Of a stretch of DNA of 64,000 nucleotides, positions 6,933 through 31,329 are shown in pieces; position 1 is the stretch's first letter; each line of letters opens with the position of its first letter. A model generated the notes under the pieces. The model had not been told where the DNA came from, made no database searches, and saw nothing but the letters and a program-made list of their open reading frames with translations. The position numbers were made by a program, and so were the translations under genes. Origin of the DNA: a virus; the IMG/VR virus record IMGVR_UViG_3300029454_000001, positions 14,344 through 78,343 of that record; one strand, 5' to 3'.

Positions 6933-9900
6933 TCAATATGCCGGGGACGGTTTGAAACGGCTATCCGTATCGTTCTGTGCTTTTGTTACTGCTTTTGCAA
7001 TCTCGCTTCCGTCCAGAATAATGCTGTTCATAATGTACTGCGGATTGTTATTTCCGCTGTTCATGCTCATTGCCATTGCAACTCCCTGGGCTACTGCTTT
7101 TGTCATTTCTTCTTTTGTAAGTCCCATGCTTCCGTCCGAACTGGAAACAATGCTGTCTGCAATCTTCTTCATGGTTCGTGGATTTTCCAAAGGAAGGACG
7201 GCTTCAGAACCAGCTTCACCGATACCAATTACCTGTGCGCCATTGAAAAGACCACCTTTGGCATACCAATTTGGATAATACCAATTAGGACTATATACAG
7301 GAGTGGAACTAGTCTTTCCTCCTCCAAGATTGTGTTTTTTCCACTCAGAAATTTTGTATGACAGCGTTGGAAAGCTAACGAGCTTCATCCCATTGACATA
7401 AGATTGTGCCGCTTGCTGACCAGCAGAGGTTAGATCAACACTAAATAAGCCTTTTATTTTATCGGAAATTCCAGATAGGTTATTTTCTGTATAGGTCTTC
7501 ATTTTTTGAGTCTCGGTGTCAACTTTACCAGAAGCCTTTTCCCAAATCTGGTTTGTATTGATAAGAACGGAAGACCAATAGCTTTGAATGGTTGTCATAA
7601 CTTTACCCATTACATCTTTTGTATCGGTGTCCATTGTTCCGAGGGCTGTCGATACAGCACTTGCGGAATTTCCCCAGTTTGTTTTTGAATCAGAACTAAT
7701 ATTTTCTGTGGAAGTTTTTACTTTTGTCTGTGCGGCAGACATAGCTTTCTCAGTTGCTGTTTGAATTCCAGACATTGCAGTTCCTGTAGCTTTGGATATG
7801 CTTCCCATTCCAGTTTTTACAAAAGTATTTGTACTGCTGATAGAGGTTTTCGTCTTAGTTTCCATCTCTTTCACGGAATCTGGGAATACTTGTGCAAAAA
7901 TCTTTGCTACAGATTCTGTATTGATTCCGAGTTCCTTGGCGCGCGCCATGATATTATCAAATGCATCCTGTGCAGTGCCACCAGAATTTTCAGCTTCCAT
8001 TAATGCTGTATCAAGAGAAACCATTTCATCTGCGCTAAGTCCTAACTGTGTTTGCAATTGTGGAAGAACAGTGTCATACAAATCATCAATCGACTGTTTA
8101 CTAAGGTCAATACTTCCAGACATATTTGTTGTTTTATCATCCAATGTTTTAATAGAATCAGACAATATTTTAAACATGTCGTCCGTAATAAGACCTTTCT
8201 GGTTTAATTGAGAAAATGCTTGCTCTGCCTGGTCAGATGTAACCCCCATTTCTCCCAACTTGTCAATCAATTTTTGTGTTGCTTTTGCCTTATCCTCGGC
8301 GGTCATCCCTTCTTGCTCAAGGCTTTCTTTTAACTGCCAAATTTCCTCTGCTGATCCAGAAAGAATATCACCTCTTCTCTGTAAAGTTTGAATGAAGTTA
8401 TTCATGGTATTGCCGAATGTGGTTCCAACACCATTACCGCCTTGCATGGTTTCAACAAGACCAGCCAATTGAGAGGTTGCGCCAGCTGCAGCTACTCCTA
8501 CTGCCACGATAAGTCCAGCTTCACCTACAAGAGGGCCAAGTGCTTTAGTAAGAGAGCCAAATTTACTGCTTGAAGAACCTGCCGCATCCCCTAAATCTTT
8601 TATTGCTTCTTTTGCTCCACTTGTGCCATCTCCAAGGACATCTGCTAATTTTTCAGCAATCATTTCAGCGTTTTTCTTTTCAGCTATTTTACTCGCAATA
8701 TGTCCCACAAGTGAACCAACAAGAGTACTGATACCTGTGATATTTGCTATTTTTACTGCAATAAAGGCTTTTCCAAGAATATCAACAAGACTTCCAACAA
8801 GCGGATGGTTTTCTTTTATTCCGTCCACTAATCCGTTAAATGCATCTGATAAACCACCAAGAATCAAATCAGCTGCTGTACTAAGGATTTCACCCCATGG
8901 CAATTCACCAAGGAATGTTCCAACTCCTTGTCCGAACTCATAGAATGTGTCTGTAGTGAGAGAATCTTTTAATGCGGTACACAGGTGAGATATAAAATCT
9001 CCAAGAGCCTGTCCATTTTCTTTCCAGTTTGTTTCTTTGATGAATTTAGCGATTCCATCTCTTATCTTGGTTGCGAGATCATCCCAATTAAATGTTTCGG
9101 TAAATGATTTTAAGCTTTCGAACGCTCCGTTTAATAAACCAGAAAGTGCATCTGCAATTGTGTTCATGTCTATCTTTTTTATTGCACCATTTAAGGCTTT
9201 TCCAATAGCAGTGCCAAGCTTACCCCATCCAGTAATTCCAGCACCATCCTTTTTAGACATATCCTTTACAAAGCCAGAAAGCATTTTCCAAGATGCCATA
9301 AAACTGTTCCCAATTAAGTTTCCAAGACCTGTCCAGTCAATTTCCTTTATAGCACCTTTTAAAAGTTGAGACAGTTTTGCCCCTATTCCGGAAAAATCTA
9401 TTCCTCCATCTCCAAGCAACAGGTTTAGAGTATTTACTGCTGTGTTAATTCCAGCTCCAAGCAATCTTCCCATTAAGTCAAAATCTATACCGCTAACCAT
9501 GGAATTGAATGCCGTGGTAAATGCATTTACAAATTCGGTTATTTTCGGGCCAACATTATTCCAATTAATAACTTCGTATATTTTTTGCATTCCAACATTT
9601 ATCATATCTGCAATAGTAAAGCCTAGTCCCTGCCAGTCTTTATTGATAAATGCTTTTCTGATTTTAGCAGCCCATTTATTGATTGGTGTTTCGTCAACAG
9701 TCAAAACTTCATCCAGTGAATCTTGTATTCCAGCAAAACTATCTGCTAAATCTCCAAGTCCAGAACCAAGACTTTTAGATTCAGTTCCAGAATTATCGGA
9801 ATTATCTGTAAGCTGATTTAATTGGTCGAATGGCAATACAGAAAGTGCCTTTTTTAATTTCTTGGCAGATGATGTAGCGTCATCAAGCCCGGAGGAGGCA

Positions 9901-11624
9901 TCGTCACCAGCTGTTTCTATACCGCCTAAGTTAGATACAATATCACTAACTCCACTCTGCGAGCCTTTTAGTTTCTTACCCATCAATACATACATGAAGT
10001 TGCGGAATGCATTTGCGGCTTGCATAAGCTTTGACATGAGCGCATTAAGTGCTTGAATAGCCGGAAGGATTCCAGCAATTAAGCCTTGCCCGATTACTGC
10101 GGAAAGTGACTGGAAATTCAGAGTGAGTAAACGAACCTGGTTCGCCCATGTGCCAGATGTCCTTGCGAAATCCCCTTGCACATCACCTGTAACTGACATT
10201 AAATAGTTATATCGAAGAGCTACTTTTTCAGCTTGAGACATTGCATTATAAGATGTTGTAATTCCCCTTGAAAGAGCATAAGCCTCCATATTTGCAACGG
10301 ATAAATTAATGCCCAATTGTCTTAAAGGCTCAATTTCCCCGGAAATTCCAGAACGTATTTTCTGAAAAGCAGTATCGGTATCAACATTGTAAAATGATGC
10401 AATATCCCCGGCTAATCCAGCAAGAGAAATTGACATTTTAGAAGCTGCATCTTGCGCAACACCAGATGATTTCATCATTGCCATCATGGTTCCAGAATAT
10501 TGCTTTGCTGCCAATTCTGATAATCCAAATTGTTCTTTGGCCGTAGAAGCAAATTTGTAGGCTTCATCTGCCATGCTTCCAAAGGAAACATCTACAACAT
10601 TTTCGATTTCTGTAATAGCAGAGCCAAAACCAATTGCACTTTTTCCTAAATTTGCCAGACCACGAATAGCCTTAAAACCGATAGCAGTTTTAAGCAAATT
10701 TCCGAGATTAAAAGAAGCGGTTTTAATTCCAGAACTACTATTCCCGAGACGTTGAAACCATCCAATAATGCCTTTTACCCCGGTTCCAATTATAGAAGAA
10801 GTTTTACTAACAATATTACCAAGGCTAGATGTTGCAGATGATAATTTAGAAAACGCACTGGATATAGAATTTGTAGCGGAATTCACTTTACCGCCAGAAT
10901 TTGCCAACTTTGCTAGTGCTTCCGTCATGCGGATTGTGTTATCACTGATTTTAGGTGCAGTTTTCATCACGTCAAAGAAAGATAATACTTCCTTTGCTAG
11001 TGTTCCAAGTTGGCTTGACGTTTGTCCGATTTTATTTCCAGAGCTTGCCAATTGTGCAATAGACTGAACTAACCTATTTACAGGTTCAGATATATCGCCA
11101 ACGCTCGTAAAACTCTCTACGATTGATTTAAGATTTCTTCCAAGCCCAGGCAATTCAGCAGATACATTCGCAATATATTCACCAGAATTGGCTAGTCTAG
11201 CCATTGAATTGACAAAACGATTAACACTGGTAGATACATCTGGAATCTCTGCCAAATTGCTTAATTGATGGATTATTTCTCCAAGTTTCCCAGAATCAAA
11301 TCCACTAACATCAACCTGGCTAAGCCTGTTGATTGAGTTGATAACTGCATTCAGACCAGAACCTTTATAATCTACTCCACCCATTGTCTTTATGGAATTT
11401 GAGAATTTTCCAATTCCATCAGCAATGCTTGTCATTTTCCCTATATCAAGTTCTTTTAGTTTTCCAAGTTCCCTTACACAACTACGTAATCCGTTTGTAT
11501 TAACTCCGCTTAATGCGGAATTAACTTCTGTGAGTTTGTTTGAAAGATTAGTCAGCGCACGTACTGCTTTTTCTGTGCTACTGCTAATCTGTATATCAAG
11601 GGTATCAATGGTATTTTCAGCCAT
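6933..11624 (-). CDS. tail tape measure protein
   Basis: 1563 aa, coiled/helical and Gly/Ala/Ser-rich, follows the chaperone pair; core region FGSMADEAYKFASTAKEQFGLSELAAKQYSGTMMAMMKS is typical of TP901-type tape measure proteins. Confidence 0.9.
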   Translation of the reverse strand: MAENTIDTLDIQISSSTEKAVRALTNLSNKLTEVNSALSGVNTNGLRSCVRELGKLKELDIGKMTSIADGIGKFSNSIKTMGGVDYKGSGLNAVINSINRLSQVDVSGFDSGKLGEIIHQLSNLAEIPDVSTSVNRFVNSMARLANSGEYIANVSAELPGLGRNLKSIVESFTSVGDISEPVNRLVQSIAQLASSGNKIGQTSSQLGTLAKEVLSFFDVMKTAPKISDNTIRMTEALAKLANSGGKVNSATNSISSAFSKLSSATSSLGNIVSKTSSIIGTGVKGIIGWFQRLGNSSSGIKTASFNLGNLLKTAIGFKAIRGLANLGKSAIGFGSAITEIENVVDVSFGSMADEAYKFASTAKEQFGLSELAAKQYSGTMMAMMKSSGVAQDAASKMSISLAGLAGDIASFYNVDTDTAFQKIRSGISGEIEPLRQLGINLSVANMEAYALSRGITTSYNAMSQAEKVALRYNYLMSVTGDVQGDFARTSGTWANQVRLLTLNFQSLSAVIGQGLIAGILPAIQALNALMSKLMQAANAFRNFMYVLMGKKLKGSQSGVSDIVSNLGGIETAGDDASSGLDDATSSAKKLKKALSVLPFDQLNQLTDNSDNSGTESKSLGSGLGDLADSFAGIQDSLDEVLTVDETPINKWAAKIRKAFINKDWQGLGFTIADMINVGMQKIYEVINWNNVGPKITEFVNAFTTAFNSMVSGIDFDLMGRLLGAGINTAVNTLNLLLGDGGIDFSGIGAKLSQLLKGAIKEIDWTGLGNLIGNSFMASWKMLSGFVKDMSKKDGAGITGWGKLGTAIGKALNGAIKKIDMNTIADALSGLLNGAFESLKSFTETFNWDDLATKIRDGIAKFIKETNWKENGQALGDFISHLCTALKDSLTTDTFYEFGQGVGTFLGELPWGEILSTAADLILGGLSDAFNGLVDGIKENHPLVGSLVDILGKAFIAVKIANITGISTLVGSLVGHIASKIAEKKNAEMIAEKLADVLGDGTSGAKEAIKDLGDAAGSSSSKFGSLTKALGPLVGEAGLIVAVGVAAAGATSQLAGLVETMQGGNGVGTTFGNTMNNFIQTLQRRGDILSGSAEEIWQLKESLEQEGMTAEDKAKATQKLIDKLGEMGVTSDQAEQAFSQLNQKGLITDDMFKILSDSIKTLDDKTTNMSGSIDLSKQSIDDLYDTVLPQLQTQLGLSADEMVSLDTALMEAENSGGTAQDAFDNIMARAKELGINTESVAKIFAQVFPDSVKEMETKTKTSISSTNTFVKTGMGSISKATGTAMSGIQTATEKAMSAAQTKVKTSTENISSDSKTNWGNSASAVSTALGTMDTDTKDVMGKVMTTIQSYWSSVLINTNQIWEKASGKVDTETQKMKTYTENNLSGISDKIKGLFSVDLTSAGQQAAQSYVNGMKLVSFPTLSYKISEWKKHNLGGGKTSSTPVYSPNWYYPNWYAKGGLFNGAQVIGIGEAGSEAVLPLENPRTMKKIADSIVSSSDGSMGLTKEEMTKAVAQGVAMAMSMNSGNNNPQYIMNSIILDGSEIAKAVTKAQNDTDSRFKPSPAY

Positions 11625-11671: not shown

Positions 11672-12085
11672 TTATTCATCCTGCCTGCCCTTTTCATGGT
11701 TAAGCTCAAAGCTCGCCTGCATGAGTTGCAAGCTTGCCAAAAGTGCGTTTCTCTGTTTTTTCTTTTCTTCTTCGGAAAGTATGCCTTCCTGTTTACGCTT
11801 TTCTTCCTCTGATGATTCAAGTAAAGGTTTCTTCAAATACTCTGCCTTGGATTTTTTTCCCATTAAAGCATTTGCAACAGCTGTGAATGTGGCTGATGTT
11901 TCATAAATGCCCGCTTGCCAAAGCTCAGCGTCTTTTCTTTTTTGCCGTATCTTTTCAGCTTCGAGATAAGGTTTTAATTCCGCTGGAGTAGAATCCATAA
12001 ATTCTTCTTTAGATACACCAATAGAGAGGTATAAAGGAAGAATCTCTTGGTAAACAGCTTCTCGAAAAGTTAATTTTTCTTTTTG
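11672..12085 (-). CDS. -1 frameshift extension of the tail assembly chaperone (T part of G-T)
   Basis: The -1 frame is open from at least 12100 through 11672 and crosses the G stop; an A-rich slippery run lies at 12085-12073. Confidence 0.6.
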   Translation of the reverse strand, partial: QKEKLTFREAVYQEILPLYLSIGVSKEEFMDSTPAELKPYLEAEKIRQKRKDAELWQAGIYETSATFTAVANALMGKKSKAEYLKKPLLESSEEEKRKQEGILSEEEKKKQRNALLASLQLMQASFELNHEKGRQDE

Positions 12086-12498
12086 TGATCCTGTGGGAGC
12101 TTCGTTGCATTCTTCTCTACTGCCTGTGCTTCTGCTACTGCATTCAGCAGACCGGATAAAAAACCATTTTTCTCCAATTCTTTATCAAGAAGTTGGTATA
12201 AATCAAATCCGCTTTTAGGATTTTCCTCGGTTCCTTCATCTTCGTAATCATCCAAAAGGTCACAGACTTTATCAAGAACAGCTTTTTTTTCAGAATCACT
12301 TTCATACCCAAACTCATCCTTGTGCTTCTTTTGAAGTCCGGCAAGAAGCAGTTCCGGAAGAAGAGAAATCATCTTCTGAAGGCTTCTCTCTTTTCCGTCT
12401 GTAATTCCCTGTACCTTGTCCAGCACATCTGTCTTTGTAAGAAGTCCATATCCAAATACAACCTTATACTCTTTTCCGTGTACATTAAAAGTTACCAT
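12070..12498 (-). CDS. tail assembly chaperone (G-like)
   Basis: 142-aa acidic protein between the major tail protein and the tape measure, ending in ..QDHKKKN on the slippery run. Confidence 0.7.
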   Translation of the reverse strand: MVTFNVHGKEYKVVFGYGLLTKTDVLDKVQGITDGKERSLQKMISLLPELLLAGLQKKHKDEFGYESDSEKKAVLDKVCDLLDDYEDEGTEENPKSGFDLYQLLDKELEKNGFLSGLLNAVAEAQAVEKNATKLPQDHKKKN

Positions 12499-12522
12499 TT
12501 TATAATCCTCCCGACATGTTTT

Positions 12523-13053
12523 TTAGTTAAGTGTCATTGCACCTGTGGAATCTGCTACTGCTTTTGCGGTATCTAAAGCCTGCGTAAGTTCGTCAGAAAC
12601 AACTTTTGTATCAAGGCCTTTATACTCTTGAATAATGAGGGACAGCGGAATTGTTGCTGCTTCATTCTGTCCAATATCAGACAATGGAATATTTTTTCCA
12701 GGGTCTGCGATAACAAAGAATGCATCAGCGAGGTCTGGAAATACAACTTCAAACCAAACTCTAAATCCTTTTGACTTTCCTGTTGCCGCATCAGTCATAA
12801 GCTTCTTTAGTGCCGTGATAACATCAGCGTTAAGATTGAAGGTTACATCCCAAGTACCACCAGTATCCTGTCTACCGGACGCATACTGTGTAATGAAGTC
12901 TTCGAGTGCGGATACGTCAATCTGCTCTGTGTCAAGAGAAATTCCACCGATGGAACTACATCTTTTTAACCATGTGAATGCAGTTGGCTTTGTTCCTTTA
13001 GCGGTTTCAACACCGTAATGAAAAGTTACGCCAAGTGTTGTTAAATCTGCCAT
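12523..13053 (-). CDS. major tail protein
   Basis: 176 aa; position and TFHYGVETAKGTKPTAFTWLKRCSSIGGISLDTEQIDVSALED resemble phi13/TP901-type major tail proteins. Confidence 0.75.
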   Translation of the reverse strand: MADLTTLGVTFHYGVETAKGTKPTAFTWLKRCSSIGGISLDTEQIDVSALEDFITQYASGRQDTGGTWDVTFNLNADVITALKKLMTDAATGKSKGFRVWFEVVFPDLADAFFVIADPGKNIPLSDIGQNEAATIPLSLIIQEYKGLDTKVVSDELTQALDTAKAVADSTGAMTLN

Positions 13054-13128: not shown

Positions 13129-13341
13129 CTACTCTTCTTTGTCTGTTTTCAGTTCTGGTAATCCTGCTACAGATGTAAGCAGTGATAAAAAGCCGGAAAG
13201 TAAAGATGCGGATAAAACCATTTTCCAGTCGACACTGCCGATTACAGTTGCGGTTCCAATGGTTGCTATTGCTGTTTGTGCGACTGTTTTTACGGCTCTA
13301 ATTCCTGCTGCTTTCAGCCAAAGTAATTTGTCTGCTTTCAT
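13129..13341 (-). CDS. holin-like small membrane protein (LL-H-type pattern)
   Basis: AGIRAVKTVAQTAIATIGTATVIGSVDWKMVLSASLLSGFLSLLTSVAGLPE. Start moved to ATG 13341, behind SD AAAGGAGAA. Confidence 0.5.
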   Translation of the reverse strand: MKADKLLWLKAAGIRAVKTVAQTAIATIGTATVIGSVDWKMVLSASLLSGFLSLLTSVAGLPELKTDKEE

Positions 13342-13393
13342 TCGACATTCTCCTTTCATATTTTTGAATAAAAAAATAGAAGCATTTCTGCTC

Positions 13394-13798
13394 CTAATCT
13401 AATAAAGTTCCTGTATATATTCGGCTGTATCGGCTTACAAGCTTTTTGATTCCACTGTCACCAAAAAACATAGGTTCCGGTCCGTATGTGCGGCGGAATC
13501 CCATTCTCACCATAGTTATGTGACTTATCTCATCCAATTCATACAATCTGGTTAATGCTTTGCTCCCAGATGTGAAGCAATTTACTTGAAATGATGGCAT
13601 TGTTGCACATTCATCCCCTTCAAGGTCACCTCTTGTAATTGGATTACCAAGCATATAAAGCTGTGCATATGCTTTTTTACCGGAAGCATTTGTTTCACTA
13701 CCATCCATGGAATAATTGTCTGCGCCAGTAATCTTAGAAACAGCCGCTCCCCATTTTGAAAAAACTTCCAGTACAGGGGATTCTATTGTGTCCGGCAT
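13394..13798 (-). CDS. putative tail completion/terminator protein
   Basis: 134 aa immediately upstream of the major tail gene; start ATG 13798 behind GAGGTGA; assigned by position only. Confidence 0.4.
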   Translation of the reverse strand: MPDTIESPVLEVFSKWGAAVSKITGADNYSMDGSETNASGKKAYAQLYMLGNPITRGDLEGDECATMPSFQVNCFTSGSKALTRLYELDEISHITMVRMGFRRTYGPEPMFFGDSGIKKLVSRYSRIYTGTLLD

Positions 13799-13811
13799 AT
13801 CTGTCACCTCA

Positions 13812-13849
13812 CAATAAAAAAATGCACTCACCTTTATAGTGAATGCATT
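13812..13849 (-). terminator. intrinsic terminator inside the neck/tail gene row
   Basis: Minus strand AATGCATTCAC-loop-GTGAGTGCATT followed by TTTTTTAT, 14 nt before the start at 13798. Confidence 0.6.
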
Positions 13850-13876
13850 GCATGTTATACTACAATTTAACACTGT

Positions 13877-13904
13877 AATGATACCATAATTAATTGGTAT
13901 CATT
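13877..13904. promoter_or_regulatory. operator-like 10-bp inverted repeat
   Basis: AATGATACCA-TAATTAAT-TGGTATCATT, with a third half-site ATGGTATC at about 13913-13920. Confidence 0.4.
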
Positions 13905-14870: not shown

Positions 14871-16922
14871 TTAAGTAATTCCCACATTATCTGCATTAAG
14901 AGATGATGCTGTATTGCCATGAGATGTTTTAGAAAGTTTTGATTCACCGATGACATACTCAAACGAATCTAATCCCATCTCTTCTGAATAGCAAGTGTTA
15001 TTAATTGCTTCTATTTCAAAATTTACGCTGTCTCCAAGATTTCCTCGAATGCTACCGCTATATCCATAGTTACTTGTCATCACACAATTTCTAAGCACAA
15101 GGAGCTGGTTTGGAGCAGAATGATAATTCGATGAATGACACAGAAATGCGCCTTTCCAATTGTCTTTTTTGAAATACTCTTTGCTGCAATTTCTAATCAT
15201 TTCGCAATTTTCAAAAATTATTTTTTGATTCTGATTGACTCCCATTCCAACTGCTGGAAACGCTTCACTGTATAAGGTACAGTTGACGACTCTTCCAGTT
15301 GTTTTTTCGTTGACATCTTTCGAGTTTCCGTCGATGTGCAACGCATATCCGGGATATGTCGCCCATACATTATCTGTGTACTCCGGAACAAAACCTTGTT
15401 CCTCCATCCGAATTGTTAAATTGCGAAGCTCAAAATTTCCGGTTACCATTACGGGAGTATTAGCATATATTCCAGATGTATTTTTGATGATACACTGATC
15501 TCGATTAACTCCAATTATTGATATGTTGTGTTTGTTTCCGAGATACACAATTTCATCGTATACGCCTTCTTGGAGAACTATTGTTGTAGGCGAATCTACA
15601 TCGCCCGCATTCCGAACTGCGTCCATTATTGTTGAGTAATCCCCCGTTCCATCTTTTGAAACGTGAATGATTCCGCTTTTGTACTTTGGAATTTCCTCTT
15701 CCATGTATACATCAATGCACGGATATGTTTTGTTGGTTGATATATTGCCGCTCCAATAGTTTTGTGGCGGAATGTAATTATTGATTTCTACATTGAAATC
15801 TAAAAAATTTCCATACCATGTAAATGGTTCACCGTTAGAATACAGATACAACTGCCCGCTTTGGCTGGTGAATGCACCGCTGTCGTTGGAATAAATTGCA
15901 ATGCTTATATAATCATGTCCTTCAGATGGCGAAGAATCAAACATACTTTCGGAGATATCAATTTCAATTTCGTTTTTTCCTGCTGTTAGCACATACGATT
16001 TCTTAAAAACTAAAATCTGTGTGTACGTAGAGTCTGGTCTATATAAAAAAATCGTTCCGGTACCACCATTTGAGAGTATTGATAACTTCAATTTTTTTAC
16101 ATTTCGGAAAATTCTTGTCTTGTCTCCGAGAGTATATACATAATCGGCATTGATATTCATTGTTGGGGCATTTTTCAGATAATCGCATTTCAGCGATATT
16201 TTGACAGACTCTTCAATTCCCAAGACGTTTATATCTCCCTTTAGCGAACCAATAGCTTCTCCCGTTGCTTTTGCTTCTGCAAGCCCACCTTCTATAGTCA
16301 ATGTAGTGTCTGGCTGTGATACACTCTGGATATCCTTAATAGCTTGTTCTTTTGCGGAATTTACATTTTGAACAGCTTCCGCAGATGTGTTTTTAGTAAG
16401 CTCCAAAAGCTGATTTATAACATCTTTTTCTTCCTGTCCTATCTGTGGTTGATCAATCTCGATACCCTCTAGCACTGGTACTTCCGCTATTGCGGTATTC
16501 CATTCAACACTAATATTTGAATCGGAATCCGTTTTAACAGCGCAAACAATAAAACGTACCGTTCCCATATACCTTGCTGCATTTCTTCCAATCAACCAAG
16601 AAAAAGTTACATTTTCGCCATCTACAGCTACATCATCACAAATGTATTGGTCTTTGATAGAAACATTAAAATCCACACTGCTTACGTTTTCGAAGTTAAT
16701 TCTGACTGAAAATTTGGATAAATCAAGATTATCTCCTACAATTTTGGGACATGAAAATTTAATACGTTCTGCATTCTTGTCAGATTGTACCCCACCAACT
16801 ACGATTGTAGAGGGCACGAAAATAGCCCTTGTCTTATCGTCAATTGTGCATATATCGGATTCTTCAGAAAGCAAATTAACATCTTCTTTTGCGCTCATAA
16901 GTAAATCAAGTGCTGTTGCCAT
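14871..16922 (-). CDS. tail fibre / receptor-binding protein with C-terminal right-handed beta-helix (pectin-lyase fold, pectinesterase-like start)
   Basis: The N-terminal ~150 aa resemble BppU-type baseplate/fibre N-domains. IIHVSKDGTGDYSTIMDAVRNAGDVDSPTTIVLQEGVYDEIVYL..NISIIGVNRDQCIIKN resembles the start of pectinesterase-like beta-helices. Confidence 0.6.
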   Translation of the reverse strand: MATALDLLMSAKEDVNLLSEESDICTIDDKTRAIFVPSTIVVGGVQSDKNAERIKFSCPKIVGDNLDLSKFSVRINFENVSSVDFNVSIKDQYICDDVAVDGENVTFSWLIGRNAARYMGTVRFIVCAVKTDSDSNISVEWNTAIAEVPVLEGIEIDQPQIGQEEKDVINQLLELTKNTSAEAVQNVNSAKEQAIKDIQSVSQPDTTLTIEGGLAEAKATGEAIGSLKGDINVLGIEESVKISLKCDYLKNAPTMNINADYVYTLGDKTRIFRNVKKLKLSILSNGGTGTIFLYRPDSTYTQILVFKKSYVLTAGKNEIEIDISESMFDSSPSEGHDYISIAIYSNDSGAFTSQSGQLYLYSNGEPFTWYGNFLDFNVEINNYIPPQNYWSGNISTNKTYPCIDVYMEEEIPKYKSGIIHVSKDGTGDYSTIMDAVRNAGDVDSPTTIVLQEGVYDEIVYLGNKHNISIIGVNRDQCIIKNTSGIYANTPVMVTGNFELRNLTIRMEEQGFVPEYTDNVWATYPGYALHIDGNSKDVNEKTTGRVVNCTLYSEAFPAVGMGVNQNQKIIFENCEMIRNCSKEYFKKDNWKGAFLCHSSNYHSAPNQLLVLRNCVMTSNYGYSGSIRGNLGDSVNFEIEAINNTCYSEEMGLDSFEYVIGESKLSKTSHGNTASSLNADNVGIT

Positions 16923-16925
16923 GTT

Positions 16926-17243
16926 CTACCCCCTCTGTGATACTTTAGTTTTACCAGTGGTTATAATGTATTTTCCGTTATCTTTTACGCCAGTGACAGA
17001 TACAGAAAAATAATCCCAAGTAAGGGCTTCCGTTGGAATTTCACATTGATTGTTTTTCAGTATTACTGGGTATTCTTTTTCCATTCTCCAAAATGAAGCA
17101 GCTGTTTTACATCCGTTCCACTCTGGTGAAAAGATAAACAATGCTTTAAGATATCCAGTCGTGCCCTTTACCAGTCCAGAGAAATCACACTTGGGATCTG
17201 GATAAATTCTTTGATTATTTACAATAAATCTTAATACTCTCAT
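16926..17243 (-). CDS. small fibre-associated protein
   Basis: Start at ATG 17243 (ATGA overlap with the upstream stop); 105 aa directly upstream of the fibre gene. Confidence 0.4.
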   Translation of the reverse strand: MRVLRFIVNNQRIYPDPKCDFSGLVKGTTGYLKALFIFSPEWNGCKTAASFWRMEKEYPVILKNNQCEIPTEALTWDYFSVSVTGVKDNGKYIITTGKTKVSQRG

Positions 17244-17626
17244 GCAGTCATCCTTTCCATTCCAACAGGGGCTACATATGTGAATTGGTTTCCCAAAATA
17301 TCTCTGGCTGTGCCAATCACGAAATGGCTGTAGTCTGCCAGAATATTGCATATAAATTCCTCTGCGTCAACCCAATATCGTTTCTTGACCATGCGGTGGA
17401 GCTCTGGTAATAGACCATAGCTGAACATTACACAATGTCCTAACTCATGGATAAATACACGGTTTAGAAGTTCTCCATGTAGGTTGTTCGCAATCGAAAT
17501 AATATGGGTGGAATAATCCGATACTCCAAGTGTTCTGTTTCCTGTGCGGTCAATTAAAACATCATCTTGTGGTGGAACAAACTGCACTCTCCATAAATCT
17601 CCATTCATGTAGAATTGTCGTAGCAT
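17240..17626 (-). CDS. small zinc metallopeptidase-like protein (HExxH)
   Basis: FIHELGHCVMF motif in a 128-aa protein. Confidence 0.5.
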   Translation of the reverse strand: MLRQFYMNGDLWRVQFVPPQDDVLIDRTGNRTLGVSDYSTHIISIANNLHGELLNRVFIHELGHCVMFSYGLLPELHRMVKKRYWVDAEEFICNILADYSHFVIGTARDILGNQFTYVAPVGMERMTA

Positions 17627-17649: not shown

Positions 17650-17685
17650 AAAAAAGCCCCTGCCGCATTAATTTGCGACAAGGAC
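17650..17685 (-). terminator. intrinsic terminator closing the low-complexity gene unit
   Basis: Minus strand GTCCTTGTCGCA-AATTAA-TGCGGCAGGGGC (12 bp including 3 G-U pairs) followed by TTTTTT. Confidence 0.6.
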
Positions 17686-17702
17686 TTAATTCATTTATTG
17701 CT

Positions 17703-18335
17703 TTAGTTCATCTGCTGTACAAGTCTGGTCAGGTCAGTTTTCATCTGCTGTCTGAGCGTTGCATCTGCATCCGACCACATTTCCGTGAGATTACGGATAA
17801 TATCAGATGTGTACTCCTTCATGGAATCATCCATTTTTCTTTTGGATTCCGTGTCTTTGGAATCATGATAATGCCTACGATTCTCATCGTATCTATCATA
17901 GGATTCGCCATATCTGGACTTCTTCCAATTCATATTCATACCATCATTTTCCATATCACTACGCTCTGGATGATATCCCATGCGGTACATATTGCGCTCA
18001 AATTCTGGATTGTTTAAATACTCATCCATCCAGTCATCATCCTGCATATACAGATACGGTCTATAGCCTTTTCTGGTTCCCCTACCTTTTGGAGCGAAAC
18101 GCCCATTTGAATAGCGGTAACGGTCATATCCCATGCGTCCAAGATACTTTTCTTCCTGTTCGCATTCGTCCATAGCTTCTACGATTCTGTAATCTTTATC
18201 TGCACAAATCGCGCACTTTACGGATTCCATGCAGTCTTTCAGATCGTCCCAGTCTTGAGCACTGAGATTATCAAAGCCATGTGTTTTGGCTTTTTCCATA
18301 GCCCATTTTCCCATTTCCATTGCAACTTTATGCAT
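17703..18335 (-). CDS. hypothetical R/Y/D/M-rich low-complexity protein
   Basis: 210 aa; GRMGYDRYRYSNGRFAPKGRGTRKGYRPYLYMQDDDWMDEY..; start overlaps the upstream stop. Confidence 0.5.
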   Translation of the reverse strand: MHKVAMEMGKWAMEKAKTHGFDNLSAQDWDDLKDCMESVKCAICADKDYRIVEAMDECEQEEKYLGRMGYDRYRYSNGRFAPKGRGTRKGYRPYLYMQDDDWMDEYLNNPEFERNMYRMGYHPERSDMENDGMNMNWKKSRYGESYDRYDENRRHYHDSKDTESKRKMDDSMKEYTSDIIRNLTEMWSDADATLRQQMKTDLTRLVQQMN

Positions 18336-18760
18336 TACAGTGCCCCCTTTCTAACAGCCTGCGTAACAGGTGCTTCTGTCGTTGGGGCTGTACCATTAAT
18401 TGCTTTCAAATTGTTGCTCGGACTACAAGCCGGATTTCCTAACATCTTGAATACTCCGCCAGTTGCACTTGTAGCTACTCTGGTTGCGTACTTCGTTCTG
18501 GTTCTTATCCCACAAGCCGTAATCTGTGCACAGCAACGATTTTCTAGCGGATACAAAGTTGTTCCTGTTCCTATCTGAATCATTACCGGAGCAGTAATTG
18601 TAGTGGCTTCTGGTATACTTTGTGCAACAACAATACAATATTTTTCTCCATTGTTGTAACTGCCTGCTGGGAGTGTGATTACAAGATTACCTCCTGTAAA
18701 CGCAACAGCTTGGCTTATTACAAGACGGTTGCAGAGCTTACAAACATTTTTACAACTCAT
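18335..18760 (-). CDS. hypothetical Cys-rich protein
   Basis: MSCKNVCKLCNRLV...RCCAQITACG; ATG 18760 behind GAGAGGTAG. Confidence 0.5.
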   Translation of the reverse strand: MSCKNVCKLCNRLVISQAVAFTGGNLVITLPAGSYNNGEKYCIVVAQSIPEATTITAPVMIQIGTGTTLYPLENRCCAQITACGIRTRTKYATRVATSATGGVFKMLGNPACSPSNNLKAINGTAPTTEAPVTQAVRKGAL

Positions 18761-18777
18761 ATTTCTACCTCTCAATC

Positions 18778-18808
18778 AAAATAAGAGGTGAGCCGTAACC
18801 CACCTCTT
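18778..18808 (-). terminator. intrinsic terminator after the Gly/Cys-rich gene
   Basis: Minus strand AAGAGGTG-10 nt-CACCTCTT followed by ATTTTG. Confidence 0.6.
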
Positions 18809-18838
18809 AGAATTAGTCAACCTCTAAGGGCGAGTTAC

Positions 18839-19639
18839 TTAGCAACAACCGTTACCATATGTATTACATCCTGCGTATGCATATGGAGCTGGAACCTGGA
18901 ATGCAGGAATCGGAGCCGGGTTGATTGCATTGATTAATCTCTGAGCCTGTGCGTACATCTCTGTTGTAAGCAATGCAGACTGGCGATCCTGGGATGCAGC
19001 ACGTTTCAGATCAGAGTTCTCTGCCTGTAATGTTGCAATCTTATCGTTAGTCAGGAAGTCAAGGATTGCTCTTGTGTTGCTGTTCTGGTTTTCCAGAAGG
19101 TCTCTGGTGTTGTTATTCATTGTGTTCTGGAGAGCACAAGTGTTGGTAGCAAGGTTGTAGTTGATACCTTGGATTGCTTCTCTTGTTTCACAGCAACAGT
19201 TTGCTAACTGAGACTGTAATGCGTTGGTATTCTGCATACCGGCTACAGTATCAGCATTGATTGCCTGCTGAACGCCGTTGAAGCCTTGAAGCATTCCGAC
19301 ATTCATACCATTAAAGCCACTCTGCATGGTATTGTTAAGAGAATATGTGCTGTCACAGATACCCTGCTGAATACCTCTGATACCATTCTGAATATCATTA
19401 AGGGCGAATTCCTCATTAATATCTGAACGGGTAGCCCATCCTTGGAAACCTGCACCATTTGTACCGTTTCCACCATTGCCACCCCAGCCGCCAAAGCCGC
19501 CGAAACCGCCCCAGCCGAAGATGAGCAATATAATAATCCACCATGCCCAGCCACCGCCAAAGCCATAGCCTTCATCGGCACGGTTATTAGAGCCGCTTAA
19601 TACAGCGACATCGCTTGCTGATAATCCACCATTCATCAT
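18839..19639 (-). CDS. hypothetical Gly/Asn/Gln/Cys-rich membrane-anchored protein
   Basis: GYGFGGGWAWWIIILLIFGWGGFGGFGGWGGNGGNG (TM segment in a Gly-rich context), CCCETRE, C-terminal AGCNTYGNGCC; SD AAGGAGG. Confidence 0.55.
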   Translation of the reverse strand: MMNGGLSASDVAVLSGSNNRADEGYGFGGGWAWWIIILLIFGWGGFGGFGGWGGNGGNGTNGAGFQGWATRSDINEEFALNDIQNGIRGIQQGICDSTYSLNNTMQSGFNGMNVGMLQGFNGVQQAINADTVAGMQNTNALQSQLANCCCETREAIQGINYNLATNTCALQNTMNNNTRDLLENQNSNTRAILDFLTNDKIATLQAENSDLKRAASQDRQSALLTTEMYAQAQRLINAINPAPIPAFQVPAPYAYAGCNTYGNGCC

Positions 19640-19716
19640 AGCGATTACCTCCTTATTGATTTTTGTAATTTATACAAAATCAAAAGACCGCGGCTCTTTT
19701 AATTATTGTAGCGAAT

Positions 19717-19956
19717 TTATTTTATTCCAAACTGGCTCTTAACCTGCGACAGTATATCGTCTGGATTAATATTTCTTTCTTTACAAAGATTTCTTGCAAG
19801 TTTTTCAATTCCTGCATTATCACCTTTTTCCATCATGTTAATTGCATTGTCAATTACAGGATTATTTCCAGACTGTTGTTTCATCATATTGATTATGGCT
19901 TGTTGAGGATTCCCTCCACCACGTATCATCTGCATAAGTTGCATTGGATTCATCAT
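19717..19956 (-). CDS. hypothetical Met/Asn/Gln-rich small protein
   Basis: 79 aa; start overlaps the upstream stop. Confidence 0.45.
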   Translation of the reverse strand: MMNPMQLMQMIRGGGNPQQAIINMMKQQSGNNPVIDNAINMMEKGDNAGIEKLARNLCKERNINPDDILSQVKSQFGIK

Positions 19957-20450
19957 CTCTGTTTACCTCCATTCTGCTTGGGTTCCGGTGTTCCAGACAT
20001 TTGTGTCGGGAACATACTCTTTATTTCGGAAATCTCAGAACAAACATCGTTCCGAAGCTGATTAAACATAGCTTCTATGTCAATCGGTTTTTCTTCTGCC
20101 TTTGGTTGCTGTTGTTCTTCCGGATTTATAAGTCGATAAACAAAAATTCTACTTCTTCCATCTGCCTGTAATTGTTTTCTATATATTTCTGTTCCATCTG
20201 TTTTTGGATAATAAACAGGGTTTCCAGACATATCTACGTCTTTTGCCTTTACGGTATCAATACCATCGACCATCTGTCCTTGCAACATGGGGATTTGTGG
20301 TACTTGTGGCATTTGTTGTATTGGTTGCTGAATCTGAGCCTGCCCGTATGGCATTGCCTGCTGATAACTATTCTGCAATTGTGCTAATCTATCTTGATAC
20401 GGTTGTATTTGTTGAAATGGTTGTGCAAAATACGGATTACCATACTGCAT
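19953..20450 (-). CDS. hypothetical Gln/Pro-rich protein
   Basis: N-terminal QPFQQIQPYQDRLAQLQNSYQQAMPYGQAQIQQPIQQMPQVPQIP; SD GGGAGG. Confidence 0.5.
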   Translation of the reverse strand: MQYGNPYFAQPFQQIQPYQDRLAQLQNSYQQAMPYGQAQIQQPIQQMPQVPQIPMLQGQMVDGIDTVKAKDVDMSGNPVYYPKTDGTEIYRKQLQADGRSRIFVYRLINPEEQQQPKAEEKPIDIEAMFNQLRNDVCSEISEIKSMFPTQMSGTPEPKQNGGKQR

Positions 20451-20508
20451 ATCTCAAACCTCCCTTGTTTTTATAACTATATTTTACAATAATAAGAGGT
20501 TAATTAAC

Positions 20509-20537
20509 ACGCCATGATAACGCCATAAATACGCCAC
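20509..20537 (-). promoter_or_regulatory. three helically phased direct repeats upstream of a TAAAAT -10 element
   Basis: Plus strand ACGCCAT/ACGCCAT/ACGCCAC starting at 20509, 20520 and 20531 (11-nt period); on the minus strand TGGCGT x3, then TAAAAT at 20486-20481. Confidence 0.45.
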
Positions 20538-20540: not shown

Positions 20541-20780
20541 TTATGAATACAAAGAAAAGCCCCGACAATACATCGGGGCGACTTTCATAATTTTCTTCTT
20601 TAATTTTCTGTTTATGCGGTCTACTGTTCTTGTGCTGTAACCCATGATTTCTGAAGCTTCTGCAAGTGTTTTTTCTTCGTAAACACGCAATCGGAATAAC
20701 TCTTTTTCTCTGGAATCAAATCCAGCTTCACGCAAATAGAAGATTCTTTCATCTTCCGAAAAGTCTTTATAATTATCCAT
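20541..20780 (-). CDS. sigma-70 region-4-like HTH protein
   Basis: REKELFRLRVYEEKTLAEASEIMGYSTRTVDRINRKLKKKI; start ATG 20780 behind GGGAGGA (ORF-track start 20840 trimmed). Confidence 0.55.
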   Translation of the reverse strand: MDNYKDFSEDERIFYLREAGFDSREKELFRLRVYEEKTLAEASEIMGYSTRTVDRINRKLKKKIMKVAPMYCRGFSLYS

Positions 20781-20811: not shown

Positions 20812-21123
20812 TTACACCGGGAAAATGCCTTTAAGGGCAAAGCCTAAAATAATACCGATTATGCCAGTTATGACATAAGCAATAATTTTGTCCTGTAATT
20901 TTCCTGGTTTTTCCATGAGTGCTTTTAAATTGTCGTTCATTTCGTCAACTGTATCTTTGATGTGTCCCAGATCGTTGTTGTATAAAGCAATTTTCTGTTC
21001 TAGCGCATTGATACGATTAAAAAAGCCTTCATCCCTTTTGGAATGCTTTTCTTTCATCTCACGGACGGCATTTTCCAATTCTTCCAAGCGGTGTTCGTTG
21101 ATACACTCGTGTTCACATCCCAT
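20812..21123 (-). CDS. XhlA-like protein (coiled coil plus C-terminal TM)
   Basis: 103 aa; N-terminal coiled coil (LEELENAVREMKEKH..INALEQKIALYNNDLGHIKDTVDEMNDNLKAL) and C-terminal TM IIAYVITGIIGIILGFALKGIF. Confidence 0.55.
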   Translation of the reverse strand: MGCEHECINEHRLEELENAVREMKEKHSKRDEGFFNRINALEQKIALYNNDLGHIKDTVDEMNDNLKALMEKPGKLQDKIIAYVITGIIGIILGFALKGIFPV

Positions 21124-21759: not shown

Positions 21760-22797
21760 TTATTCCCCCGCTTTGGTACCGATTACGATACCGCCGTTAG
21801 CTTTCGGTGCGACCGGAACGAACATGCCGGATGCTTTTGTCCATACTGCAACTGGGTCTGGTGTAGCCCACATGGAAAGAGTAACAAAGGAACGATTCTC
21901 TTCCTGTATAAACTGTCTGTATTCAAGCTCTTCTGGTGTCACACCCCATAGGCCAACACCGAAAGAACCGTTAGCATCTGCTTCATACAGAGTAAATACA
22001 TCCTCTTTGAGGTATCTGGCCGTTTTCAGGGTTCCATCTGCTTTTCTGAAATTAAAGTTCTCATCACAACGATCAATTGTGATTCCATATTCCTGCATAA
22101 GCAGATTGGCAAGCTCCTGCTTTGTGAGAAGCCTTTTATTTGCAGCACCCAGAACAGCTGTCTGCATTGCAGTGTTGTTCCGCATGTAGTTAATCATTTT
22201 AAGAGAAGTAACAGCTTTGTTTACTACATAGCCATTGCCTTCTGCTACAGCTACCATTTTCTGGATATCGCCCATGATATCTGCATCTGGCTTAGACCAA
22301 TCAGTAAGCGTTACTTTTGCACTTGCTGGAACGCCATAGTCAATTCCCATGTCAACATGGTTCTCTTTGATTGTTACAGCACCAGTGGAAAGGAACTGTC
22401 CTTTCATAACATTTGCTCTTGTAACAACGCCCTCGAACAGTCTGGCTGCATCATCAAATACAAAGTTTTTCAGTGCTTCATTATCCGGCACACCGTTTTC
22501 AATTGCCTGCCGTAAGTTTTCGGACTGATTGATTTTTCTCTTAATGAAGAGTTTTTCAGTCAGGACTTTTTCAAATCCAGGTCTTGTGCCGATTTCTGCT
22601 TCGCTATCAAGAGCGTGGACGAATGCAACTTCCGGTAGATTCTGTCCAGCCATAAGTCTGTAATACTCTGCTTTCAGATACTGGGTTTTTGTATCTGGGA
22701 AAATGGTATCGAGGATACCTGGTCTTTTAACACTGAAATTCTGAGAGAAATTAAGTCTTTCTTCTTGGGTAATTGATTCCAAAATATTAAATGGCAT
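21760..22797 (-). CDS. major capsid protein (lambda gpE-like, HK97 fold)
   Basis: 345 aa after the scaffold and decoration genes; sequence resembles the phage major capsid protein E family. Confidence 0.8.
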   Translation of the reverse strand: MPFNILESITQEERLNFSQNFSVKRPGILDTIFPDTKTQYLKAEYYRLMAGQNLPEVAFVHALDSEAEIGTRPGFEKVLTEKLFIKRKINQSENLRQAIENGVPDNEALKNFVFDDAARLFEGVVTRANVMKGQFLSTGAVTIKENHVDMGIDYGVPASAKVTLTDWSKPDADIMGDIQKMVAVAEGNGYVVNKAVTSLKMINYMRNNTAMQTAVLGAANKRLLTKQELANLLMQEYGITIDRCDENFNFRKADGTLKTARYLKEDVFTLYEADANGSFGVGLWGVTPEELEYRQFIQEENRSFVTLSMWATPDPVAVWTKASGMFVPVAPKANGGIVIGTKAGE

Positions 22798-28897: not shown

Positions 28898-29178
28898 TTC
28901 CTCACCATCTTTCTTTTTGATTTCAAGTATTTTCTGTATTTGCGACTGTATTTACGAAGAATTAAATCGAGCATAATGCTATTTGTCTGTTCTACGTTTT
29001 CTGACATAGTTGTGAGATATGGATAATCTTCTCTATCATCTACTAATGTCTTGAAGATCAAGTCTAAAGCAAACTGAGCACTGACAGGTGGGTCGCACAG
29101 TTCAAAGTCTTTATCCTTGTACCACTCATCAATCTTATTTTGGAATCCATCAAAGGATATTTCTTCGTTCCATATCAT
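28894..29178 (-). CDS. hypothetical protein
   Basis: 94 aa; overlaps the neighbouring gene ends. Confidence 0.4.
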   Translation of the reverse strand: MIWNEEISFDGFQNKIDEWYKDKDFELCDPPVSAQFALDLIFKTLVDDREDYPYLTTMSENVEQTNSIMLDLILRKYSRKYRKYLKSKRKMVRK

Positions 29179-29202
29179 ACATTCACCTCAAATAAATTTA
29201 CA

Positions 29203-29838: not shown

Positions 29839-29857
29839 TTAATATTTCCTCCAAGTT

Positions 29858-30318: not shown

Positions 30319-30370
30319 TAAATTTTCCTCCGCTTCGGAATGCCATGCATTTTTCGGAAATTGTTCTGTT

Positions 30371-31087: not shown

Positions 31088-31198
31088 CTCTTGTTAAAAA
31101 AGTCCAGTGCGCCGACTTGAACGGCATAAATCTCCCAACGAGAAACACTGGAACTTTAAGGGGGAAAATGCAACTTCTGGCAATGGCAATTTTCCAGA

Positions 31199-31270: not shown

Positions 31271-31329
31271 TATCCCGCCTGTCACGGACAGTTCTTTTCA
31301 AAGGAACTGGGATGGGTTTCACTTTTGCT

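Follow-up and report, generated by a model that had tools for sequence, protein, structure and literature searches.

A recurrent five-gene cassette with its own regulator gene and phased repeats in gut phage genomes

What could a self-contained transcription unit of five compositionally unusual genes be doing between the head and tail genes of a phage? This question is raised by a 64,000-nucleotide stretch of viral DNA (the window; positions 14,344 to 78,343 of IMG/VR record IMGVR_UViG_3300029454_000001), in which five genes, here named p1 to p5, lie between a regulator gene with a phased repeat array on one side and a terminator on the other (interval 17,650–20,537; Table 1). An earlier reading made from the letters alone (the sequence-only reading) had described these as orphan proteins rich in Gln/Pro, Gly/Cys and Arg/Tyr, with compositions recalling spore-coat and tiny sporulation membrane proteins. 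All five minus-strand open reading frames (ORFs) are present and the residue percentages of p1–p5 match that description, but the proteins are not orphans, as p1 and p3 belong to phrog_21718 and phrog_16490, p3 and p4 have thousands of homologue clusters and the gene order recurs in about 85 diverse loci from phages and prophages of Clostridia and other gut bacteria. Judged from gene content and order, the interval represents an accessory module that is widespread among phages and passes horizontally between them. Our favoured explanation of its role, to which we would give a probability of about 0.4, is that it is a non-essential, late, self-regulated module that would build a p3-centred, membrane-inserting and cysteine-linked assembly.

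Recurrence and mobility of the cassette

Gene-order counts were obtained with iterative local hidden Markov models (HMMs) over all ORFs of 87 diverse loci, and a one-genome-per-species scan yielded 80 loci from bins of Lachnospiraceae, Ruminococcus, Oscillospiraceae, Bacilli and others. The order regulator-(~125 amino acids)-p1-p2-p3-position 4-p5-(~100–128 amino acids) was constant in nearly all of the 87 loci. A longer block reaching from an XhlA-like gene upstream of the regulator to a small peptidase-type gene downstream of p5 was in the same order in 80 IMG/VR loci that had been chosen through p3 and, in an independent choice through the capsid gene, in 71 of 72. Ratios of non-synonymous to synonymous substitution (dN/dS) against close relatives indicated that the five genes are all under purifying selection, with values of 0.06–0.18 (p1 0.06, p5 0.065, p4 0.10) except for p2 (0.40), while the regulator gene gave 0.09 and the capsid gene 0.067.

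Searches with tblastn located adjacent homologues of p3 and p4 in Clostridium perfringens phage CPD1, and Butyrivibrio phage Ceridwen was matched by p3. The order in CPD1 was p1-like gene, p2-like gene, HNH insert, p3 and p4, and that in Ceridwen was regulator, terminator, ~125-amino acid Cys/His protein, p1, p2, p3, position-4 gene, HNH insert and p5. The cassette follows the lysis genes in both of these phages, whereas the window lineage has it at the junction of head and tail genes, and in the lysogen Vescimonas fastidiosa MM35 it forms the last block of the prophage, after tail, holin and amidase genes and before the host lactate permease, lactate dehydrogenase, miaB and mutL genes. The occurrence of the same block at such differing sites (head-tail junction, post-lysis position and prophage end) indicates that it moves as a unit between phage backbones. 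A plasmid search returned one prophage on an 861-kb Vescimonas replicon and a fragment in Parabacteroides, and nothing else; among Clostridium phage records, only three to four carried the cassette. The HNH-type genes inserted in CPD1 (CPD1_038; locus L082, 6125–6748, between p2 and p3) and Ceridwen (QHJ73770; locus L084, 7109–7903, between position 4 and p5) are related to each other, which suggests that homing elements target the cassette.

The p3 HMM also reached beyond Clostridia, with matches to gp23 of the crAss-like phage cr52_1 (6e-65), protein 00036 of Bacteroides uniformis phage C3_41T2LP (4.5e-58) and bas06_0034 of Escherichia coli phage KarlJaspers (Bas06; 1e-21). All three homologues carry a Gly-rich hydrophobic segment, a CCC motif and a Cys/Gly C-terminus, as p3 does. 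Several cr52_1 genes (locus L085, 2751–8449) have in-frame TAG or TAA codons under table 11, gp23 having two, which is consistent with stop-codon recoding in this crAss-like lineage. A 557-kb scaffold labelled Prevotella sp. (L141) was not used as host evidence, because its GC content of ~31% (28–36% over the 20 kb around the cassette) is low for Prevotella and makes the label doubtful.

One of the 72 capsid-matched relatives (L182) had p2–p5, the peptidase gene and a fibre-like gene replaced by one GDSL/SGNH-like ORF of 352 amino acids (11817–12875), a variant that hints that the cassette is dispensable. This possible dispensability, together with the Vescimonas arrangement, in which the final prophage block has an amidase gene on one side and host genes on the other, recalls the phage morons at the lysis–attachment site end of temperate siphophages. 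The cassette could accordingly be one that a prophage uses for lysogenic conversion, altering the host envelope for example through a superinfection exclusion or DNA-entry-blocking complex. As with morons, the unit has at the sequence level its own promoter and terminators and a sporadic, mobile distribution; additionally, it comes with its own regulator, membrane insertion is predicted for p3, and the window phage has a serine-recombinase integrase and other lysogeny-type genes. Unlike morons, the module comprises five to seven co-conserved genes, which is large for known exclusion systems, and a cognate regulator–operator pair; its place in the window lineage is within the late structural operon, 3' of late genes; and p3 homologues are found in Drexlerviridae and crAss-like phages, groups taken as virulent. 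No PADLOC-DB 2.0 defence model was matched. We therefore regard lysogenic conversion as a rather unlikely role.

Regulator gene, phased repeats and hairpins

The sequence-only reading placed a dedicated regulator gene immediately upstream of the unit, and this was borne out. Residues 42–79 of the encoded protein matched Pfam Sigma70_r4 (PF04545) with 29.1 bits against a cutoff of 24.1, and the NCBIfam sigma70-ECF superfamily model TIGR02937 was matched at 9.6e-9 over model positions 110–163 only. Region 2 was not found in the Pfam and NCBIfam scans, and with region 4 only the protein is classed as a region-4-type helix-turn-helix (HTH) regulator and not as a complete sigma factor. Its region 4 resembles that of SigF/SigG (1e-4). 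The ORF is open back to a TTG at 20840, which would give 99 amino acids. A regulator homologue directly adjoined the cassette upstream in 53 of the 87 loci.

The three phased TGGCGT repeats and the TAAAAT -10 element that had been proposed as the start of the unit are likewise present, with the repeats 11 bp apart. TGGCGT-N5-TGGCGT with zero mismatch occurs within the 64-kb window in this array only. Close relatives retained an [A/G]TGGCGT array of 3–4 copies, and a diverged subgroup carried ATGGCGA, ATGGCGA and GTGTCGT in the same phase, followed by TATAAT. When the 130 nucleotides after the regulator gene were compared in diverse loci, a lag of 11 bp was the best self-match in 25 of 46, in comparison to 20 of 230 shuffles, whereas the repeated word varied by lineage (TTGACG, TTTGCG, CACTTT, GATAG, GTAAGTT and others). 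Such lineage-specific words at a constant lag argue for cognate regulator–operator pairs rather than a shared host factor, and point to the repeats as marks of these pairs, binding being suggested by adjacency. An explanation of the TGGCG repeats as Spo0A '0A boxes' (TGNCGAA) was dropped as a general one, because other lineages carry unrelated words at the same 11-bp phase.

The repeats lie upstream of a promoter-like region with a poor -35 element (TTAACC), which at the sequence level is the arrangement of an activator with a tandem direct-repeat operator in helical phase. Its -10 element may be TAAAAT (20486–20481) or the overlapping TATAGT (20481–20476), and a GGGAGG Shine-Dalgarno sequence follows at ~20464–20459. 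A -10 element of TAAAAT/GATAAT type recurs 3' of the repeats in diverse loci. The succession of regulator gene, terminator, phased repeats and operon recurred in many unrelated phage backbones, and this recurrence supports the proposal that the cassette is a separate transcription unit with a dedicated regulator.

Hairpins were found at the three sites that the sequence-only reading had given, and a further one lies within the regulator gene. The one that closes the unit after p5 has the features of a rho-independent terminator and is kept in relatives with compensatory stem changes. The hairpin that follows p3 and the one within the regulator gene, at its 3' end, were also significant against shuffled controls, and the latter predicted structure isolates the cassette from upstream late transcription. 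The hairpin in front of p3 is the weaker one, as proposed, and is conserved only in the lineage that has the type-A allele of p2. The spacer between p3 and p4 (18761–18838, minus strand) can form three mutually exclusive hairpins that are conserved in relatives: one at the 5' side, the terminator, and one in which the Shine-Dalgarno sequence of p4 is sequestered. This suggests that the spacer is an attenuator of p4–p5 that sets the ratio of p1–p3 to p4–p5.

p3 and its partner proteins

p3 appears to be the anchor protein of the module. It matched phrog_16490 (6e-69; PHROG category unknown function), and the family comprised more than 7,800 clusters at 90% identity, with 2,639 clusters at 50% identity at E ≤ 1e-3 in an exhaustive library of 1.84 billion proteins. 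An acidic N-terminal tail of ~30 residues is followed by a Gly/Trp-rich hydrophobic segment (~28–55), an N/Q-rich helical rod of ~150 residues, a Pro-rich linker and a Cys/Gly-rich tail. The Cys clusters are CCCETRE at 148–154 and a C-terminal GCNTYGNGCC. An alignment of 77 diverse members showed conservation of the hydrophobic segment (G..G.W.W.IILF..FGWGG.GGFGG), of the CCC at 148–150 (95–100%), of an invariant NTRD, of AASQ..QNA and of the linker P.PAY.V..P, while the C-terminal tails are dense in GC, CC and NC and the chains hold 8–18 Cys. The hydrophobic core reached a median hydropathy (KD15) of 2.11 in 74 members, with acidic flanks and basic residues nearly absent on both sides. The segment may be a stable anchor or a fusion-peptide-like inserting segment.

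Residues 70–240 of p3 have a hydrophobic periodicity of 3.64 residues (power 93.6 against a maximum of 67.9 in 300 shuffles) and none at 3.5, which indicates that the rod is a hendecad-type helix, with a repeat of 11 residues, and not a heptad coiled coil. In comparisons with 300 shuffles each, the Bacteroides homologue (C3_36) gave 76.4 against a maximum of 67.2, and the crAss homologue cr52_gp23 gave 104.0, barely above its maximum of 103.8. If fully helical, the rod would be ~22 nm long. A Gly-rich hydrophobic segment near the N-terminus combined with an oligomeric helical rod is also found in the phiX174 pilot protein H, the i-spanin Rz, the T4 holin T and class I fusion proteins. p3 is like these in architecture only, as no sequence or profile similarity to them was found, its rod is N/Q-rich with Cys and its periodicity is 3.64 residues and not heptad; as proteolysis primes fusion proteins, the peptidase of the module could prime p3. 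StbC was the sole NCBIfam model matched by p3 at E ≤ 1 (0.34), and the sole PADLOC match was the coiled-coil tail of ZorA (E = 0.0056, 13.5 bits).

The other constant members, p1, p2 and p5, are low-complexity proteins. p1 has a Q/P-rich N-terminus, a conserved core of ~60 residues (consensus WVQG..AKA..V..G..V.LPDS....IY.KS.D..G.P) and a C-terminal helix; it was found in 72 of the 87 loci and matched phrog_21718 (6.6e-18), again in the PHROG category unknown function. p2 occurs among close relatives as two allele types that are ~31% identical, and 63 of 65 position-2 proteins fell into one cluster. p5, whose start overlaps the p4 stop, was present in 71 of the 87 loci and consists of a four-Cys helical N-terminal domain, a low-complexity centre rich in R/Y/D/M (also in R/Y/G) and a conserved C-terminal helix. 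No PHROG match was obtained for p2, p4 or p5. The statement that none of the five could be assigned to a family was thus corrected by PHROGs for p1 and p3, and otherwise stood: none of p1–p5 reached a threshold in scans against Pfam, NCBIfam or PADLOC models, and sequence and profile searches of the PDB with p1, p3, p4 and p5 gave no significant match. A signal peptide-like N-terminus was not detectable in any of the five products by sequence inspection and hydropathy.

p4 is a basic (pI 9.4), beta-rich protein with 8 Cys, an N-terminal C-x3-C-x2-C and a disordered Pro/Thr/Ala tail. Its Cys at positions 3, 7, 10, 42, 76, 77, 83 and 112 are invariant or near-invariant, and 4,904 homologue clusters were found, with no Pfam, PHROG or PDB match. 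A different sequence type occupied position 4 in most relatives (44 of the 67 position-4 proteins compared, 110–185 amino acids). AlphaFold2 (AF2) modelled this type as a stand-alone TNF/C1q-like jelly roll of ~140 amino acids with a predicted local distance difference test (pLDDT) score of 92.4. Foldseek matched it to F-BclA, ExsFA, BxpB, BclA and TNF ligands (E = 4e-7 to 1e-5, TM ~0.7), and the fold also matches phage fibre and spike knobs. A sequence and profile search of the PDB with this position-4 family gave nothing significant, and one member (L127) matched Pfam BclA_C (PF18573) at 3.8e-5 with 24 bits, below the cutoff of 38. Structures 1wck, 7r1m and 8d02 represent this ten-strand, TNF-like jelly roll among exosporium proteins. 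A single-linkage BLAST cluster that joined p4 to the TNF-like type depended on one link (E = 7e-4 over 40 residues) and therefore no homology between them is claimed; the window p4 may instead be an analogous replacement of the TNF-like protein.

These matches bear on the proposal that the unit encodes spore-coat, exosporium or tiny sporulation-membrane proteins by which a phage remodels the spore of its lysogen. Cys-, Gly- and Tyr/Arg/Asp-rich products that lack signal peptide-like N-termini fit assembly in the mother cell, many hosts are Clostridia, and the likeness of the regulator to SigF/SigG would agree with it. The Bacillus exosporium and endospore-appendage proteins (BclA/F-BclA, ExsFA/BxpB, ExsY/CotY) share with the module, besides the jelly roll found at position 4 in most relatives, richness in Cys, partners without detectable signal peptides and a sigma-type regulator nearby. 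They differ from it in that identity is ≤16% and collagen-like repeats are missing from the module, which is phage-encoded; the window p4 is a different Cys-rich type that is not linked to the BclA-like fold. The window proteins matched no YjcZ, coat or exosporium family, including ExsY/CotY, in Pfam or NCBIfam scans, and p3 is not YjcZ-like, as the model TIGR01732 gave no match and members of that family have ~50 amino acids, mostly a single Gly-rich transmembrane helix, against 266 with a ~150-residue rod in p3. The operator words are lineage-specific and not a shared host box such as that of Spo0A. Butyrivibrio fibrisolvens, the host of Ceridwen, does not sporulate, and its phage carries the full cassette; the presence of p3 homologues in phages of the Gram-negative Bacteroides and E. 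coli likewise argues against a spore-specific function. The spore reading is consequently not supported, and we hold it to be very improbable.

A small peptidase-type protein of one of two types almost always adjoins the cassette. In the window this is an HExxH (HELGH) metallopeptidase-like protein downstream of the unit terminator, which matched phrog_1233 (1e-11) and phrog_13742 'peptidase' (1.4e-4), with Pfam scores far below threshold (DUF6782 0.031, Peptidase_M78 0.16). In 20 loci it was found 3' of p5, and it probably serves the module as an accessory. The protein is homologous to protein 00031 of Bacteroides phage C3_41T2LP (3.3e-5), named 'PolyVal metallopeptidase' in OR296439; single-domain PolyVal-type Zn metallopeptidases reportedly belong to phages and conjugative elements. 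Many loci have an unrelated Cys/His/Asp protein in the place of the HExxH protein. This alternative family of ~120 amino acids has an invariant D-C..R...W...H and a near-invariant D, a papain-like triad pattern, with no Pfam or PDB match; its 34 ORFs lie before p1 (position A) or after p5 (position 6) in alternation with the HExxH type, an example being 4665–5039 of the Ceridwen locus L084.

Alternatively, the products may be an accessory part of the virion, with p3 as a virion-borne fibre or a membrane-penetrating, pilot- or spike-like protein, the Gly/Trp segment serving as a fusion peptide on the membrane of the target cell, p4 or the TNF-like protein as knob or anchor, p2 as chaperone and the peptidase priming p3. 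Positions are favourable to this, as the window cassette lies between head and tail genes, the module often adjoins tail-fibre genes, lateral tail fibre genes being its neighbours in E. coli Hanrivervirus, and it lies near tail genes in cr52_1. p3 homologues are present in the cultured phages KarlJaspers (Drexlerviridae) and C3_41T2LP and in crAss-like genomes, Drexlerviridae and crAss-like phages being taken as virulent. Depositors labelled the crAss and Bacteroides homologues 'spike protein/glycoprotein' or 'viral fiber'. The flanks of the p3 segment are acidic and not basic, as in fusion peptides, and the missing signal peptide-like N-termini of the five products would also be in keeping with virion proteins. 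TNF/C1q-like knobs are typical fibre tips, as in the phi812 spike knob, the CBDs of the cyanophage A-1(L) fibre and collagen-like fibres, and helical-shaft fibres such as the phi29 head fibre gp8.5 and T4 fibritin are further comparisons. The module resembles knobbed fibres in having a rod and, in relatives, a TNF-like protein. It differs from them in that rod and knob are separate polypeptides and in the N-terminal Gly/Trp segment, CCC ring and Cys/Gly tail of p3. Points on the other side are the unit's own regulator, promoter and terminators, its place after the lysis genes or at the prophage end in classical temperate genomes, its sporadic occurrence within phage groups, with the few Clostridium phage records noted above, and the natural variant L182 that lacks p2–p5. 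Low-complexity proteins rich in Q/P, M/N/Q and R/Y/D would be unusual components of a virion, and no virion proteomics was cited in depositor annotations of the homologues or found in the literature searched. On this balance a virion role is less probable than the favoured reading.

Genomic surroundings and proposed role

The window is part of a tailed-phage genome with nearly all genes on one strand, and the contigs closest to it, each ~80 kb long, come from metagenomes of the human gut. Further off in the window, family scans placed RecT, an RNA ligase, a tRNA cluster and a large serine recombinase (phrog_95, 3e-111; 41942–43711, minus strand). The phage is probably temperate.

Table 1. Coordinates of the cassette, its signals and neighbouring genes in the window (aa, amino acids)
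Feature	Position	Strand	Remarks
p1	19953-20450	-	165 aa; Q 18%, P 10%
p2	19717-19956	-	79 aa; N 14%, M 11%, Q 10%
p3, module anchor protein	18839-19639	-	266 aa; G 14%, N 13%, 8 Cys
p4	18335-18760	-	141 aa from ATG; TTG 18775 would give 146 aa
p5	17703-18335	-	210 aa; D 12%, M 9%, R 9%, Y 8%
Regulator, sigma-70 region-4-type HTH	20541-20780	-	79 aa from probable ATG 20780
Putative operator, three direct TGGCGT	20536-20531, 20525-20520, 20514-20509	-	exact 11-bp phase
Promoter-like region	20476-20503	-	weak -35 TTAACC
Hairpin and U-run inside 3' end of regulator gene	20559-20579	-	-16.8 kcal/mol, z = -4.4
Weak AU-rich hairpin and U-run, p2-p3 gap	19675-19710	-	-11.4 kcal/mol, z = -2.9
Terminator-like hairpin after p3	18782-18809	-	12-bp stem, -17.4 kcal/mol
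Strong intrinsic terminator after p5	17654-17687	-	14-bp stem and U6, -27.7 kcal/mol, z = -8.2
HExxH (HELGH) metallopeptidase-like protein	17240-17626	-	128 aa; downstream of unit terminator
XhlA-like protein	20812-21123	-	N-terminal coiled coil, C-terminal transmembrane helix; just upstream of regulator
E-type major capsid protein	21760-22797		family scans
Portal	23987-25480		gene order and precomputed SPP1_portal Pfam marks in close relatives
Large terminase	26001-27695		gene order and faint terminase match marked in equivalents of close relatives
Pectin-lyase-like protein	14871-16922		683 aa; family scans
Tail-completion gene	13394-13903		
Major tail gene	12523-13053		family scans
Tape-measure-like gene	6933-11624		1563 aa; label from size and position only

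The XhlA-like protein matched phrog_937 'hemolysin' (3e-14) and fell below the Pfam XhlA (PF10779) cutoff, with 19 bits against 34.7, while its architecture fits that family and its hydropathy peaks at residue 80 (KD19 2.24). The gene stood 5' of the regulator in 72 of 72 capsid-chosen close relatives and in 8 of 86 other diverse loci, and is possibly associated with the module while lying outside its core. This neighbourhood invites the view that the cassette is an accessory to lysis, with p3, as a single-pass membrane protein with a long helical domain, in the part of a holin, antiholin or spanin-like regulator acting with XhlA and soluble partners. In CPD1, Ceridwen and Vescimonas the cassette comes immediately after genes for holin and endolysin, in cr52_1 the p3 homologue has a LysB/FtsL-like gene two positions 5' of it, and a hydrophobic segment with Cys rod and Pro-rich end recalls, in architecture only, the T4 holin T and the i-spanin Rz. 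Any cargo at the end of a late operon would adjoin lysis genes, however, and canonical holins and endolysins are already encoded by these phages, a spanin is not required in monoderm hosts, and p1–p5 match no holin or spanin family in Pfam or PHROGs. A function in lysis is thus improbable.

Several further observations concern the surroundings of the cassette. The slot that follows the HExxH gene (14871–17243, minus strand) is hypervariable among close relatives; in the window it holds a protein of ~105 amino acids, with its start probably at 17243, and the pectin-lyase-like protein, the gene for which is missing from many relatives, and in L182 the single GDSL/SGNH-like ORF takes up everything from p2 to this slot. 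It looks like a site at which receptor-binding or depolymerase genes are swapped. A holin-like ORF of 76 amino acids (13129–13359, minus strand) lies between the tail-completion and major tail genes, which is an unusual position for a holin, and three relatives (L167–L169) have a PF16079 Phage_holin_5_2 gene at the same site. An anti-repressor gene (6123–6818, minus strand) directly follows the tape-measure-like gene, and no distal-tail genes were identified after the latter in the subset of ORFs scanned. A superinfection-exclusion or lipoprotein-like protein is encoded at 1666–2592 (minus strand). The block at 28310–34084 (minus strand) looks like a tRNA-repair block, with an RNA ligase (phrog_14301, 28310–28897), an RtcB-like 'RNA-binding protein' (phrog_850, 31330–32781) and four tRNA genes (Ser-TGA, Met, Met and Gln-TTG) within 31199–34084.

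In the favoured reading of a self-regulated, p3-centred module, the regulator gene would be transcribed with the upstream late genes and end in its own terminator. The regulator would then bind the three TGGCGT repeats, which are one helical turn apart on the same face of the DNA, and activate the -35-poor promoter. Transcription would run through p1, p2 and p3, undergo attenuation where the p3 terminator and the hairpins alternative to it can form, continue through p4 and p5 and stop at the terminator after p5. As signal peptide-like N-termini were not detectable, we infer that the five products would assemble in the cytoplasm. p3 would be the organiser, its hydrophobic segment inserting either into the membrane of the producer cell from inside or into that of a target cell from the virion, and its Cys clusters would join one chain to another or to partners, by disulfide bonds or by metal. 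p4 would cap or cross-link the p3 rod, most relatives having a TNF/C1q-like trimer at that position. p1, p2 and p5 would act as low-complexity adaptors, of which the Met-rich p2 may shield or chaperone the hydrophobic segment of p3, and the small peptidase may mature one of the components.

Several points weigh against this reading. Binding of the regulator to the repeats is suggested by their adjacency, and the interaction, location and timing of the products are all deduced from sequence. The p3 segment has no flanking positive charges, which is atypical for a stable transmembrane anchor. The window p4 was modelled from a shallow alignment with an AF2 pLDDT of 48.7, at which fold matches of the model are meaningless, and it is not detectably homologous to the TNF-like type (hhalign probability ≤1%). 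The HMMs of p1, p2, p4 and p5 detected no neighbours in the crAss-like, Bacteroides and E. coli phages, so conservation across phyla is claimed for p3 and the peptidase only; p1-, p4- and p5-like neighbours there were recognised by composition (for example R/Y/D-rich) and were set aside, as the HMMs did not detect them. L182, finally, is a single metagenomic contig that may be defective.

A bolder and more tentative possibility, which we think less likely to hold than the reading above, is that the cassette represents a previously unrecognised phage structural system that spans bacterial phyla and has no counterpart among the described virion, lysis, exclusion and defence systems. At the centre of such a system, a ~22-nm rod of 11-residue periodicity with an invariant CCC ring and a Cys/Gly tail may bear a Gly/Trp segment that is 'fusion-peptide-like', and the system may add a TNF/C1q-like or Cys-rich beta cap, low-complexity partners, maturation by a peptidase and its own regulator–operator pair. 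If true, this could be a cross-linked membrane-penetrating device, or an exosporium- or keratin-like matrix, made by phages in gut bacteria.

In summary, the module is an autonomously regulated phage accessory operon. By family comparison, only its region-4 HTH protein and, weakly, the peptidase and the XhlA-like neighbour appear to belong to characterised families. Pfam, NCBIfam, PHROGs, PADLOC and the PDB offered no functional annotation of it, and identifier and keyword searches of the literature found no description of these genes. The module is abundant and occurs in a very common group of ~80-kb human-gut phages. Few multi-gene cassettes of phages are, like this one, accompanied by a regulator–operator pair of their own as they travel, and for this reason it can be tested directly through inducible expression and reporters; homologues are at hand in cultured, tractable systems, namely phages KarlJaspers (Bas06), Ceridwen and CPD1 and the lysogens Vescimonas fastidiosa MM35 and Lachnospira intestinalis CLA-AA-H89B. 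Its role, once known, would annotate thousands of gut-virome genes together, and might show that phages have a further, new means of making assemblies that are cross-linked or act on membranes.

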